Of a stretch of DNA of 64,000 nt, positions 23,204-26,995 are shown one piece after another. This DNA comes from a virus. Lineage: Duplodnaviria; Caudoviricetes. The notes under the pieces were generated by a model. It searched no databases and was not told the DNA's origin. It saw only the letters and a list, made by a program, of their open reading frames with translations. The stretch is taken from IMG/VR virus record IMGVR_UViG_3300043754_000129, positions 192,001 to 256,000 of that record; one strand, given 5' to 3'. The translations under genes were made by a program, and so were the position numbers. Positions within the stretch are counted from its first letter, which is position 1; each line of letters begins with the position of its first letter.

Positions 23204-23758
23204 TTAACGCGTGATACCGTGCTTGTACATGAAGCGGCGCATGTCGTCCATGGCAGTCTTCGTCAGGAGCGTGTTGTACATCGAACGATCCCAGACCTTC
23301 GCTACCAACTCCGCACCCATGTCCTGCTCCATATGGTTCGCGACTTCGATAGCGATCAGCTCATGGATTTCCACATTGGTCACCATGTGGCTATGAAAGC
23401 CAAAGCGATTGTGGATGCTATTGTCTTCGAACGCATCGAAGAACGCCTTCGGACGCTTGGCCACGCAGAACAAATACGCAAGCCACTCCGCCTTCGTGCC
23501 AATCAGGGCCTGGAGCAGATCCCGATCGGTAAACGAGGCACTGGGCGTCGTGAAGATGTTCGTGCCATAGATCGAGTGGAACAACCCCGCGACCTGGACG
23601 TGCTCGGGCATCCCCCACTTCTTCAGGAGGTCTCGCGTACCCTTCAGGTGTTCGAAAAGAGTCCGGCCCGTATGACTGGTCGTGTCCGTATGGAACTGCT
23701 TGAGACAGTCCTCATACGGATCGTAGTCGTGCGCCACTACCGCGATGGGAAACCCCAT
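23204..23758 (-). CDS. HD-like metal-binding protein (DUF6817-like)
   Basis: SHTGRTLFEHLKGTRDLLKKWGMPEHVQVAGLFHSIYGT; start MGFPIA overlaps the upstream stop (TGATG). Confidence 0.7.
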   Translation of the reverse strand: MGFPIAVVAHDYDPYEDCLKQFHTDTTSHTGRTLFEHLKGTRDLLKKWGMPEHVQVAGLFHSIYGTNIFTTPSASFTDRDLLQALIGTKAEWLAYLFCVAKRPKAFFDAFEDNSIHNRFGFHSHMVTNVEIHELIAIEVANHMEQDMGAELVAKVWDRSMYNTLLTKTAMDDMRRFMYKHGITR

Positions 23759-24387
23759 CACGCAGCTTCCGTCGGCATGACGGGCTTGGCACCCACGTGC
23801 GACTTGAACACGAGTGCCGTACGCAGATGCGGACAGTCGCGCGCCGGCGCATTCGCCTTGTGCGGGATGTGGCCCGGGAACGTCACGATACGGAACGGCA
23901 CGGCCGCTGCGGCCTTGATGATGTCCTTCTCGTCGAGCGAGTAGAACAGCGTCTCGCCGCCCCAGGGTGCCTTCCAGTCCGGGTTCGTGTAGATGATCGT
24001 CGAGAAGTAGTTCTCGGTGTCGCGGTTGTCGACGTGGATGTAGCCTTCCGTGCCGAACGTGTGGGCGTTGCCATACGCGCGCAGCGGCTCGTGGCCTTGC
24101 AGGATCGTCTTGCTCAGCAGATCCCACACTTGATACACGGAGAAGTTCTCCGGCTTTTGGCGCAGCTGGTCCGCACAGTTCACGCGGCTATTGAGGTCGC
24201 CACCTGCGAAGTGCGTGTGCCAGAAGCTGTACTTGTCCTTCTCGGCGTTGCTCTTCCAGCCATAGGCCCAACGCGGCTGCTTCATGAGCGCGGCGATGGC
24301 GTTCTGGAGCTCAGCCGGGATCAGTCCGTCATGGATCTGAATGCGGGCGATGAGGTCAGCGTGCTTCGTTTGAATTGCTTGGTTCAT
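23758..24387 (-). CDS. 2OG-Fe(II) oxygenase, prolyl-4-hydroxylase-like (copy 3)
   Basis: GYIHVD (HxD), WKAPWGGE, distal His in GHIPHKA, R/K in LRTALVFK. Confidence 0.85.
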   Translation of the reverse strand: MNQAIQTKHADLIARIQIHDGLIPAELQNAIAALMKQPRWAYGWKSNAEKDKYSFWHTHFAGGDLNSRVNCADQLRQKPENFSVYQVWDLLSKTILQGHEPLRAYGNAHTFGTEGYIHVDNRDTENYFSTIIYTNPDWKAPWGGETLFYSLDEKDIIKAAAAVPFRIVTFPGHIPHKANAPARDCPHLRTALVFKSHVGAKPVMPTEAA

Positions 24388-24397
24388 GGTTCTCTTC

Positions 24398-25021
24398 TTA
24401 CATGCGGAGGATCTGCTTCGAGCGGAACGAGAGCAGCGGAAGGTATTGCGGAGCTTCACGGGTCGGCCCGTTCGGCTTGTGGGGCAACAGTCCCGGGAAC
24501 GTGATCACGCGGAACGGTTTCGGTTCCACCGCGCAGATGATGTCATTCATCTCACGATCGTAGAAGACCATCTCGCCACCCCAATGAGCTTGCCACTCAT
24601 CGAAGGCAAAGATAATCGTCGAACGATAGTTCGTCAGGTTCAGGCCATTGCCCATCTTACCCTGATCCTCAGGATCAGTGTTGTCACCGTGCGCATAGCC
24701 TTCGCAGCCGTGATGAAACCCAATCACGAAGGCGCGCATGAGACTGTGGCCTTTCAGGAAGGTACTCGTAAAGAGCTTCCAGATTTCAGCCGAGTCGATC
24801 TGGTGACCGTCACGCATGAGGTTCTCTTCTGCGTTTTGGTTGCCGCGCAACGGATTCGCCACGCTGCGGCCCCAGACGGGATACTCGTCCCAGGGCGCGG
24901 TCTGCCAGCTATAGGTCCAGAGTTCCTTCTTCACCGTAGCGGCGAGTCGGTCCTGAATGTCTTTCGGGATGATGTCGTCATAGACGTGCACCTCATCCAT
25001 CAAACTACCCATTGCTTTCAT
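24398..25021 (-). CDS. 2OG-Fe(II) oxygenase (copy 2)
   Basis: GYAHGD, WQAHWGGE, PGLLPHKP, SFR. Confidence 0.82.
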   Translation of the reverse strand: MKAMGSLMDEVHVYDDIIPKDIQDRLAATVKKELWTYSWQTAPWDEYPVWGRSVANPLRGNQNAEENLMRDGHQIDSAEIWKLFTSTFLKGHSLMRAFVIGFHHGCEGYAHGDNTDPEDQGKMGNGLNLTNYRSTIIFAFDEWQAHWGGEMVFYDREMNDIICAVEPKPFRVITFPGLLPHKPNGPTREAPQYLPLLSFRSKQILRM

Positions 25022-25602
25022 GTTTCTCTTCTTTTCCTCGAACGAAAACCGAGCACACCACGCATCTTGTCAGTCTCTCGTGTTGGGGGGCTGATGCGGT
25101 GAGGGATGTGGCCGGGCGAGATGATGACGCGAAGCGGCTTAGGCTCAATCACCTTGATGATATCCGACTCATCTTGCGTGAAGTACATGAGCTCCCCGCC
25201 CCAATGAGCTTGCCACTCACTGTGGATATAGAGAAGCGTCGTGTAGTAATCCTCTTCTTTGCCATCGATGTGGACGTGACCATCCATGCCTTGCGTGAAG
25301 CTCAGCGCCCAAAAGCGCAAGAGTTCATGCTCGGGCAAGTACTTCTGTTTGATGATCGCCCAGAACTTACCAAGGAGGTAGGTGCGCCGATCTGCGTAGA
25401 GTTCTGCTTCGCAGTTCCCCAAGTCAGTAGCGTCCGAGCCTCCCATAAACAACGCGCCCCAGTTCTTATACGCGTAGTTATTGGTGGTCCAGTTGTTAGC
25501 CCAAATGGGCTGTTGCGTCAGACGTTGCAACTCCCCGCGCAGCGCCTGAGGAATCGGTACATCGTCGTAGACTTGTACCAATGCTGCCAGGTCTTGTGTC
25601 AT
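25018..25602 (-). CDS. 2OG-Fe(II) oxygenase (copy 1)
   Basis: GHVHID, WQAHWGGE, PGHIPHRI, MRGVLGFR; ATGA overlap with the next gene. Confidence 0.85.
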   Translation of the reverse strand: MTQDLAALVQVYDDVPIPQALRGELQRLTQQPIWANNWTTNNYAYKNWGALFMGGSDATDLGNCEAELYADRRTYLLGKFWAIIKQKYLPEHELLRFWALSFTQGMDGHVHIDGKEEDYYTTLLYIHSEWQAHWGGELMYFTQDESDIIKVIEPKPLRVIISPGHIPHRISPPTRETDKMRGVLGFRSRKRRET

Positions 25603-25621
25603 TTGTTTAAGCTAGCAAAAT

Positions 25622-26205
25622 AAAAAAAGGGGTAATGCCACAGCCCACTGAGGACGGCCGTGGTACAGCGTTCATCTATCTCATCCGGGGAGACGACCGT
25701 TTCAATAGACTTCTACTGTACCCAAACGCACACTAGCGTTGACGCTCGCACCGATACACTGATGCGCCGAACGGATAATCCTCAGCAGGCTGCGTTCTAG
25801 GAGCAAAGCTCAACCAGAGTACAACTTCCCAGATCCACTGGGCGTACCGAATAGGCAGTCGGGCCAGCAAGAAACCCTTTGCGTGTGGGCAAACACACGT
25901 GGTCTTTTAATCGGTATCAGACCATAGACTGTGAGAACAGCTAAAGAGGAAGCAGTGTATCTGGTACCCCCACGGCACCCTGTGGGCTCTAGGCTGTCTC
26001 ACGACAGTCTGTTGTCAAGCCCATCACACCAACAACCACCACCGAGATAAGGATCTCGTGCCGCACTTTCGCAGGCGTTTCACCTGAGCGTTCCCCGACC
26101 GTGGTAAAGACCACAATCAGAGGCACTGGAGACTTGCACTCCTCTTCAGACAGTATCAACGGTACTACCAGGGATTTCTCCCCGCATAGAATAGCCGTCG
26201 TGCGG
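25622..26205 (-). ncRNA. Candidate large, highly structured non-coding RNA (~580 nt)
   Basis: No credible ORF; several 6-13 bp long-range helices, GNRA-capped hairpins and a possible pseudoknot found by hand; ends in a U7 tract; strand inferred from GNRA loops and flanking genes. Confidence 0.6.
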
Positions 26206-26208
26206 TTT

Positions 26209-26643
26209 TTACTTATCCATGGCCCCATTGACCGCGCCTTGCACCACGCGGCGCACCAGCGACTTGGGCTTGCGTGCACCGAGGTGCTGATGGTCGTCCG
26301 GGGTCATCGGGATTTCCGAGCTCTGCTTCAGACGCACACCACCGGCCGCTGCCACGAATTGGGCACCGAGCGACACCGCCCCAGCACTGAACGCCATGCT
26401 GTTAAACGAGTGATGCCAGATCGTGTCAAGGTAGGTGAACCACAGGAAGAACACGCCGAACAGTCCGCACAGCAGGTACGGGATCAGACGGGCCGGGTCG
26501 ACGTCACCGTTCCAGCTGGTGAACATGTCACCGCAGACTTTGGCGATGAACGCGAAGACCATCGAGAGTTCTTCCTGGATGAACTTCACCAGGACTTGCA
26601 GGGTCACATACGGGCCAATGCGGGCCCAGAGCTTTTGCCACAT
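26209..26643 (-). CDS. Multi-pass membrane protein, holin-like
   Basis: Start moved to MWQKLW; 2-3 hydrophobic segments and a basic C-terminal tail. Confidence 0.55.
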   Translation of the reverse strand: MWQKLWARIGPYVTLQVLVKFIQEELSMVFAFIAKVCGDMFTSWNGDVDPARLIPYLLCGLFGVFFLWFTYLDTIWHHSFNSMAFSAGAVSLGAQFVAAAGGVRLKQSSEIPMTPDDHQHLGARKPKSLVRRVVQGAVNGAMDK

Positions 26644-26767
26644 GTTGTTGGTTCTCCAAAAGGTTATACAACACACAATAGAAATCAACAAGAAAAAAAG
26701 ACAGCAAAAAAAGAGGGACCCGAAGGTCCCCCATAAAAGAGTGCGTTCGGCACTCGGAGCAATTCGT

Positions 26768-26995
26768 TCACATGTCCCAGTCCCAAGTCGGCCGAGCAGA
26801 CTGCTCAGCCGCATAGAGGTCCCGGGCACGCTGGGAGATCTGAACAATCGACGAAGGCACGACAGGCGTGGGGACCGGCGCAGCGTTAGGCTTGTAAGGC
26901 CTGCTCTGCCGCTCACGTCTGTCGCGTTCTTGGGCTTCTCGCATAAGCTCCGAGAAGGGTACGAATCCAGTAACTGCATTGACTGCGTCTACCAT
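26768..26995 (-). CDS. Hypothetical protein, 75 aa
   Basis: ORF track; GAGG RBS. Confidence 0.6.
   Translation of the reverse strand: MVDAVNAVTGFVPFSELMREAQERDRRERQSRPYKPNAAPVPTPVVPSSIVQISQRARDLYAAEQSARPTWDWDM

Follow-up and report, generated by a model that had tools for sequence, protein, structure and literature searches.

A conserved structured RNA of soil jumbo phages with a predicted type I hammerhead ribozyme in its 5' half

Introduction

Hammerheads are the best-studied small ribozymes, and stem II is the site from which engineers control their activity. RNAs of the ROOL and GOLLD type are typically found in tRNA gene clusters. Type I hammerheads have been described in bacteria and phages (Perreault et al. 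2011, PMC3088659), and the RAGATH-1 hammerhead is represented in Rfam as RF03152. ROOL and GOLLD are large ornate RNAs (PMC12286853).

The RNA described here was found in a 64,000-nucleotide stretch of an IMG/VR virus record (IMGVR_UViG_3300043754_000129, positions 192,001 to 256,000), hereafter called the window. A first-pass annotation, made from the letters alone, had pointed to a large structured RNA in front of an oxygenase operon, and it overlooked the hammerhead organisation of the 5' half. With this organisation, the likely mechanism shifts from a scaffold or switch to self-processing. We consider it reasonably probable that the minus strand from about 26193 to 25616 is a non-coding RNA gene of a clade of soil jumbo phages, in which a 5' type I hammerhead would release a 3' RNA. 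The clade carrying the RNA is related to Burkholderia phage FLC9.

Results

A structured RNA on the minus strand of a gap between genes

The gap covers positions 25603-26208 (606 nt) and is flanked by two minus-strand genes.

26209-26643, minus strand: upstream gene, 144 aa as called in databases
25018-25602, minus strand: downstream gene for a 2OG oxygenase, the first of three 2OG-Fe(II) oxygenase paralogues

Past the oxygenases (window 23204-25602), the order is a DUF6817 gene, a gene for a 165-aa protein (p165) and a NUDIX gene. The source is a 323,678-bp virus record (~324 kb) with 57% G+C, in which fragments of the beta and beta' subunits of a multisubunit RNA polymerase are also encoded. 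The runs holding this DNA were soil metagenomes only, and no RNA sequencing runs were listed among them. The RNA element is single-copy within its genome. Two side observations were made in the same record. The longest upstream ORF covers 26209-26979 (256 aa), its database relatives are 144-154 aa long, and its extension (26644-26979, minus strand) contains two hairpins that resemble terminators and have T runs (26713-26732 and 26739-26755); the 256-aa ORF is probably over-extended. A second ORF-free stretch of 422 nt is located at genome positions 96211-96632, outside the window and separate from the tRNA cluster region.

The earlier reading of the gap as devoid of a credible ORF held when 14 homologous gaps were compared, as no ORF was conserved in position or frame. 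The minus strand folded at -233.5 kcal/mol, compared with -205.3 ± 4.6 kcal/mol for dinucleotide shuffles (z = -6.07), whereas the plus strand gave a z of -1.74 in the same shuffle comparison. These results indicated that the structure goes beyond chance and is located on the minus strand.

Six complementary pairs had been listed by the first-pass annotation, and all six were exact reverse complements. Their fate in the relatives was mixed: three matched covarying helices, one was an alternative pairing and two were not kept.

25648-54 with 25779-85: long-range helix of the 3' domain, supported by covariation
25662-68 with 25716-22, and 25983-88 with 26018-23: both coincide with helices that covary among relatives
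25926-32 with 26004-10: alternative pairing of the repeated word ACUGU/ACAGU
25753-61 with 25953-61, and 25944-50 with 26140-46: private to this genome, lost in relatives

The pseudoknot suggested for one of these pairs involved a GTTGTT/GACAAC hairpin. This hairpin occurs in the window only and the relatives are without it, so the proposed pseudoknot is window-specific. The GUGA-capped hairpin (25994-26008), also noticed earlier, was nearly invariant among homologues; its second loop base was U or G, and one U was inserted in two relatives. The terminal U7 tract was found where it had been seen, at 25622-28.

Rfam was searched with cmscan, as had been advised. At the gathering level, only tRNAs were found in the window, and no family reached the threshold for the RNA. 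At E values up to 10 over 25400-26400, the only match was a chance snoRNA match on the other strand. There was no covariance-model match to ROOL, GOLLD, other Rfam large RNAs, introns, RNase P or tmRNA, and ARAGORN recognised the RNA as neither tRNA nor tmRNA.

Homologues in jumbo phages

Homologues occupy the syntenic site in FLC9, a Burkholderia phage, and in roughly 20 jumbo-phage contigs from metagenomes or IMG/VR. When the proteins of the flanking genes were used as queries, metagenomic relatives at 61-83% identity emerged, and all contigs from these searches contained a gap of 570-660 nt at the same site. Motif scans added two metagenome contigs, the true matches among 13 metagenome pattern matches. 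An IMG/VR scan with the P4 motif (described below) returned 42 matches, six of which contained the full element. The IMG/VR additions were five records of 51-285 kb (G001-G005) and an 11.8-kb contig (L058). Locus L204 corresponds to G005 and locus L002 to FLC9. A covariance model of the 5' part picked out the gap between gp133 and gp132 of FLC9, which is unannotated and 507 nt long.

L002:8231-8737 (LC667451.1, about 137441-137947), reverse strand: divergent FLC9 homologue of the whole RNA

No match was found by blastn among 50,697 phage records, either with the gap or with the surrounding 8 kb. Within IMG/VR, nothing was found by protein-guided scans with both flanking proteins or by two exact-motif scans. 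Two pattern scans of GTDB bacterial genomes gave nothing or chance matches, and the element was not found in them.

Hammerhead elements in the 5' half

All core elements of a hammerhead are found in the 5' half of the RNA, and their order is that of type I: strand 2.x, C3-A9, the stem II position, G12-A14, stem III, U16.1, H17 and strand 1.x. The hammerhead consensus and rules were those of PMC3088659. A script was run over every homologue, and hammerhead closure was found at the homologous place in all of them. The elements in the window are the following.

26150-26154, minus strand: 5' strand of stem I, ACUGU (positions 2.5-2.1), pairing with 25928-25932
26143-26149, minus strand: core C3-A9, CUGAAGA; CUGANGA is invariant across homologues
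26067-26070, minus strand: G12, A13, A14 and A15.1 (GAAA), invariant
25934-26067, minus strand: whole region of stem III and its insertion
26060-26067 with 25934-25941, minus strand: stem III, 8 bp, enclosing an insertion of ~118 nt
26042-26059, minus strand: hairpin P5a in the stem III insertion
26018-23 with 25983-88, minus strand: helix in the stem III insertion that covaries and surrounds the GUGA hairpin
25932-25933, minus strand: predicted scissile bond after C17 (25933) and before A1.1 (25932), from the rules of PMC3088659
25928-25932, minus strand: 3' strand of stem I, ACAGU (1.1-1.5), 5' end of the predicted 3' product

The core CUGANGA was kept also in FLC9, L203, L204 and L058, and N7 (A or U) was its sole variable base. 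The A15.1-U16.1 pair was AU in 15 of 15 distinct sequences and was likewise kept in these four loci. At the N-U-H triplet, U16.1 (25934) was invariant, and position 17 was C, A or U; no homologue examined had G there.

The two stems next to the core changed freely. Stem I had at least 5 bp in all homologues and came in six covarying sequence versions: ACUGU/ACAGU in most sequences, ACCGU/ACGGU in L032, GGCGU/ACGCC in G004, UCGCA/UGCGA in G005, CCUCC/GGAGG in L058 and GCUCU/AGAGC in FLC9. Stem III covaried as well, and its length was 2 to 10 bp among homologues (8 bp in G004, GGGGG/CCCCC in FLC9, CCC/GGG in G005 and 2 bp in L058). It was made of wholly different sequence in L203, FLC9 and L204, and it formed a plain hairpin in FLC9, L204 and L058. 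In the window, stem III contains one U-U and two G-U pairs and is weaker than in the relatives.

These comparisons support the hammerhead topology well, and we regard it as very probable. Because all catalytic bases were invariant while both flanking stems were rewritten between lineages, the comparison also argues for catalysis. Self-cleavage with a role in processing is a step further, and we hold it to be more likely than not.

A multi-hairpin junction at the stem II position

The 5' half carries four further hairpins, three of them at or after the stem II position.

26171-26183, minus strand: P1 hairpin, upstream of the ribozyme; its stem differs in nearly every lineage with the pairing kept
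26128-26142, minus strand: P2 hairpin at the stem II position, with a T-loop-like 7-nt loop, UGCAAGU
26087-26127, minus strand: P3, an extra hairpin, from 0 (L058) to ~50 nt in length
26072-26086, minus strand: P4 hairpin, CAGG-UGAAACG-CCUG, with a second T-loop-like heptaloop, one base before G12

P1 was missing in L017. The pairs of P2 covaried (GC to AU or UA), and the P2 of L205 resembled a tRNA T arm. P3 stems differed among homologues, many of which had a CACG loop. P4 was invariant except in FLC9, which had a compensated version. The heptaloops of P2 and P4 were both of the U-N-N-R-A type. A9 and G12 are not joined by a single-helix stem II with a 10.1-11.1 pair at the core. The 3' strand of P2 is followed by a linker or P3, by P4 and by one C before G12 is reached, a stretch that measures 57 nt in the window and 24 nt in L058.

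With Rfam hammerhead models at E values up to 10, no match was obtained in the window, FLC9 or L058. The best match was that of the RAGATH-1 hammerhead model, which aligned with the compact relative L204 (G005) in identical register at 15.2 bits, against a threshold of 56.3, and 40 nt stood where the model has a 7-nt stem II. Thus, the multi-hairpin junction in place of a simple stem II keeps Rfam from calling the predicted ribozyme, and homology searches miss such forms. A strict-stem hammerhead scan of the whole genome found no more copies, and the window copy itself fails the strict stem III rule.

The inserted hairpins might block the A9-G12 geometry required for catalysis. In an alternative reading, the hammerhead-like junction would be purely architectural and non-cleaving, and the gene product would be an uncut ornate RNA of ~590 nt, for example a scaffold or homo-oligomer like ROOL or GOLLD. 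Such an RNA would fit the conservation seen in both halves and the repeated words ACUGUC, GACAG, ACAGUC and GACU, which permit alternative or intermolecular pairings. A multi-hairpin junction for stem II is also unusual; no description of an active hammerhead with hairpins between 11.1 and G12 was found in the searchable literature. However, the catalytic nucleotides are all invariant even in distant lineages with fully rewritten stems I and III, G is avoided at position 17, where it matters for cleavage only, and the compact L058 and L204 versions consist of the ribozyme alone. Nor did Rfam searches show a resemblance to ROOL, GOLLD or other large RNAs. We therefore regard an uncut RNA as unlikely.

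The tRNA elbow is the docking site of paired T-loop hairpins in RNase P, T-box RNAs and the L1 stalk of the ribosome. A more elaborate proposal is that the stem II junction is a sensor and the RNA a natural allosteric hammerhead, in which a ligand, a tRNA or a protein would control cleavage in the course of infection and with it the release of the 317-nt RNA, and/or that the released RNA assembles into a ROOL/GOLLD-like particle. At present we see this proposal as speculative and quite improbable.

Covariation in the middle region and the 3' domain

Downstream of the predicted cleavage site, the RNA folds into a middle region and a 3' domain.

25842-25924, minus strand: middle region with hairpins 25900-24, 25882-99 and 25861-77, with doubly changed pairs in the RNAalifold prediction
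25857-60, minus strand: conserved GACU in the middle region
25638-25842, minus strand: 3' domain, with hairpin 25828-42 followed by a ten-helix fold
25778-88 with 25645-55, minus strand: long-range helix closing the 3' domain

RNAalifold with 13 sequences gave 102 pairs, with compensatory changes in 43 of them. A covariance model of the 3' domain, built on window 25638-25829, recovered all relatives. Covariation among homologues, a check that the first-pass annotation had named, was strong in this domain. Paired cells made up 96.4%, compared with 84.7% in shuffles. Double changes were found in 32 of the 54 pairs, compared with 14.5 in shuffles, and none of 500 shuffles equalled the real alignment. 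When the partners were slid as a control, only 5-9 pairs were doubly changed. In the region from GAAA to the cleavage site, 95.7% of the cells were paired and 8 of 17 pairs were doubly changed, again with 0 of 500 shuffles equal. The linker of the middle region has its place taken by a variable hairpin in relatives.

The earlier claim of a large structured non-coding RNA is borne out: the RNA is conserved, its pairs covary, and it belongs to no Rfam family at the gathering level. That the structured RNA is real is close to certain. For a decayed gene, an intron or a chance structure in a spacer, nothing speaks but the lack of annotation. Sequence blocks within this gap are better conserved than the flanking proteins (61-77% amino-acid identity), its homologues share no ORF, and strong covariation is seen in an element that is single-copy in its genome and matches neither introns nor other Rfam models. 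On these grounds decay or chance can practically be dismissed.

The words ACUGUC, GACAG/ACAGUC and GACU repeat at 26150-26155, 25994-26008, 25927-25932 and 25857-25860, which correspond to one strand of stem I, the two arms of the GUGA hairpin, the strand that follows the predicted cut, and a site further downstream. All four places are conserved. Through these repeats alternative pairings are possible, and covariation favours none of them. Three candidate pairings were tried and set aside. One, between the 5' motif and the loop of hairpin 25900-24, showed no covariation and was dropped. A long-range GUC/GAC pairing from RNAalifold, which uses core C3, was disfavoured. Post-cleavage pairing between ACAGUC and the downstream GACU is possible, but covariation did not support it (there was a mismatch in L032).

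Ends of the RNA and predicted products

Conserved signals were found at both ends of the RNA.

26185-26193, minus strand: conserved 5' motif TATTCTATG, with TATG invariant in the 16 closest homologues
25616-25644, minus strand: 3' tail with conserved GGGNUGYGG, a weak GGG/CCC hairpin and the tract U7-A-U4-G

TAT-N-N-TATG directly before P1 is common to the 16 closest relatives. In phiKZ, the late promoters of the non-virion polymerase have the consensus TATG, whose G is +1 (PMC4666361), and the 5' motif is possibly a phiKZ-type late promoter with G as the start site. Because the extended motif has only four occurrences in the genome, we treat the promoter as putative. The motif was absent from FLC9, L203, L204 and L058. 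TATTNTATG was considered as a general promoter motif and was too rare in the genome to judge.

The 3' tail is terminator-like and ends 13 nt ahead of the oxygenase start codon (25602). Its hairpin is weak, and the terminator is absent in L005 and FLC9. A cassette of a hairpin and TTTATTTTG also precedes other genes of this genome, 10-25 nt from their start codons.

Genome positions 141598, 175938 and 204954 (the last being window 12954): cassette with a strong hairpin, TTT(T)ATTTTG and a start codon 10-25 nt further on
Window 25616-25628: cassette at the 3' end of the RNA

This recurring cassette may be a combined terminator and promoter signal of the phage. As it is general in the genome, the end of the RNA looks like an ordinary unit boundary. 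We regard catalysis, the promoter, the terminator and any role of the released RNA as putative.

In the mechanism that we favour, the RNA would cut itself between 25933 and 25932 during or after transcription. If transcription begins at the TATG motif, the 5' piece with the ribozyme would be ~253 nt long. The 3' piece would be a multi-helix RNA of 317 nt with a 5'-hydroxyl end, finishing at the terminator-like U tract. Site-specific cleavage by a hammerhead leaves 2',3'-cyclic phosphate and 5'-OH ends. The 3' piece would comprise three hairpins, a linker, hairpin 25828-42 and the ten-helix 3' domain. The hammerhead would act in processing, detaching the 3' RNA from the upstream transcript and defining its 5' end exactly. 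Once released, this RNA might stand alone, be a component of an RNP or form the structured 5' end of the downstream message.

Gene contexts in relatives

The number of tandem 2OG-Fe(II) oxygenase genes ahead of the DUF6817 gene was compared between window 23204-25602 and loci L003, L005, L008, L035, L202, L205 and L206. It ranged from 3 to 0 among related phages, and p165 was kept. G002 had no oxygenase or DUF6817 gene downstream, and the RNA was followed there by a p165 homologue. G003 had one oxygenase, the downstream gene of FLC9 was the unrelated gp132, and G004 also had an unrelated downstream gene. Over the lineages, the genes after the RNA were thus oxygenases, a p165 homologue, FLC9 gp132 or a small ORF. 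The RNA precedes other genes in relatives and is therefore not tied to oxygenases.

These contexts speak against the first-pass proposal of a dedicated leader of the oxygenase operon, as the number of oxygenase genes behind the RNA is 3, 2, 1 or 0 in relatives. A sensor of the riboswitch kind that serves only the 2OG oxygenase/DUF6817 operon would agree with the position of the RNA directly 5' of three 2OG-Fe(II) oxygenase genes and a DUF6817 gene in the window, and with a similar position in most close relatives. However, the RNA persists in G002, which has neither an oxygenase nor a DUF6817 gene downstream, and in G003 with its single oxygenase, it precedes unrelated genes in FLC9 and G004, and no riboswitch family in Rfam matches it. 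The variable gene contexts make such a sensor very unlikely and largely refute it.

Just 13 nt lie between the U tract and the start codon, and the 3' RNA may hence be no more than a leader. The 3' domain would then be the structured 5' untranslated leader of the following operon, its fold would tune the stability, termination or translation of the downstream genes, and the hammerhead would only detach the upstream message. The RNA always lies directly ahead of the next gene on the same strand, the distance from the U tract to the start codon is only 13-25 nt in the window and close relatives, L005 and FLC9 do without the terminator, and the same type of ribozyme exposes a Shine-Dalgarno sequence in L058, all of which would suit a leader. 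More than 70 conserved pairs, however, are far beyond the need of a stabiliser. The downstream gene varies by lineage (oxygenase, p165, gp132 or small ORF), which leaves no evident ligand or pathway in common. The terminator with the TTTATTTTG cassette is general before start codons in this genome, and nearness to a gene therefore says little. We consider the leader explanation a serious alternative, though not a likely one.

In three relatives, the setting of the hammerhead is distinct. The FLC9 ribozyme begins at the stop codon of gp133, so it would have to be cut from a longer transcript there. A compact form was found in L058.

L058:4364-4412, minus strand: compact hammerhead variant (~90 nt) with no P3 and a 2-bp stem III

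It is located in a 73-nt spacer between genes for 478 aa and 209 aa, and the 3' strand of its stem I is the GGAGG Shine-Dalgarno sequence of the next gene. Predicted cleavage would consequently leave an mRNA starting at the ribosome-binding site. In G005 (L204:2932-4280), a variant hammerhead lies inside a tRNA cluster, with Thr upstream and Lys, Asp and Met downstream. It heads ~1.26 kb without an ORF of 90 aa or more, and this stretch is possibly another long processed RNA. The common denominator of all these contexts appears to be a processing module that would create a defined 5' end.

Discussion

This ~590-nt RNA, in which over 90 base pairs are conserved, appears to define a new RNA family, and its 5' half a new architectural variant of a known ribozyme class. 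A clade of giant phages keeps a predicted hammerhead in which stem II is naturally swapped for a conserved multi-hairpin module. If the predicted cleavage is true, it would widen the accepted architecture of hammerheads and would offer a natural case for regulated cleavage. One member of the family is present in a cultured phage-host pair, FLC9 and Burkholderia glumae.

The RNA shares with type I hammerheads the order of the elements, the invariant core, the covarying stems I and III and the intergenic location in phages, and with the RAGATH-1 model a hairpin upstream of stem I. It differs from them in that P2, an optional P3, P4 and one C before G12 stand in the place of stem II, and in that stem III may hold ~118 nt; the Rfam threshold is not reached.

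Like ROOL and GOLLD, the RNA is several hundred nucleotides long, has many conserved helices and occurs in phages. The G005 relative in a tRNA gene cluster resembles the typical context of these RNAs. In contrast to them, the phage RNA has the core of a predicted self-cleaving ribozyme and no Rfam match even at E = 10. Oligomer formation by this RNA would be speculative.

Engineered allosteric hammerheads, which carry an aptamer on stem II, are artificial, and the phage junction is likened to them by position alone, not by ligand or switching. The likeness is that an extra folded module is placed exactly at stem II in both.
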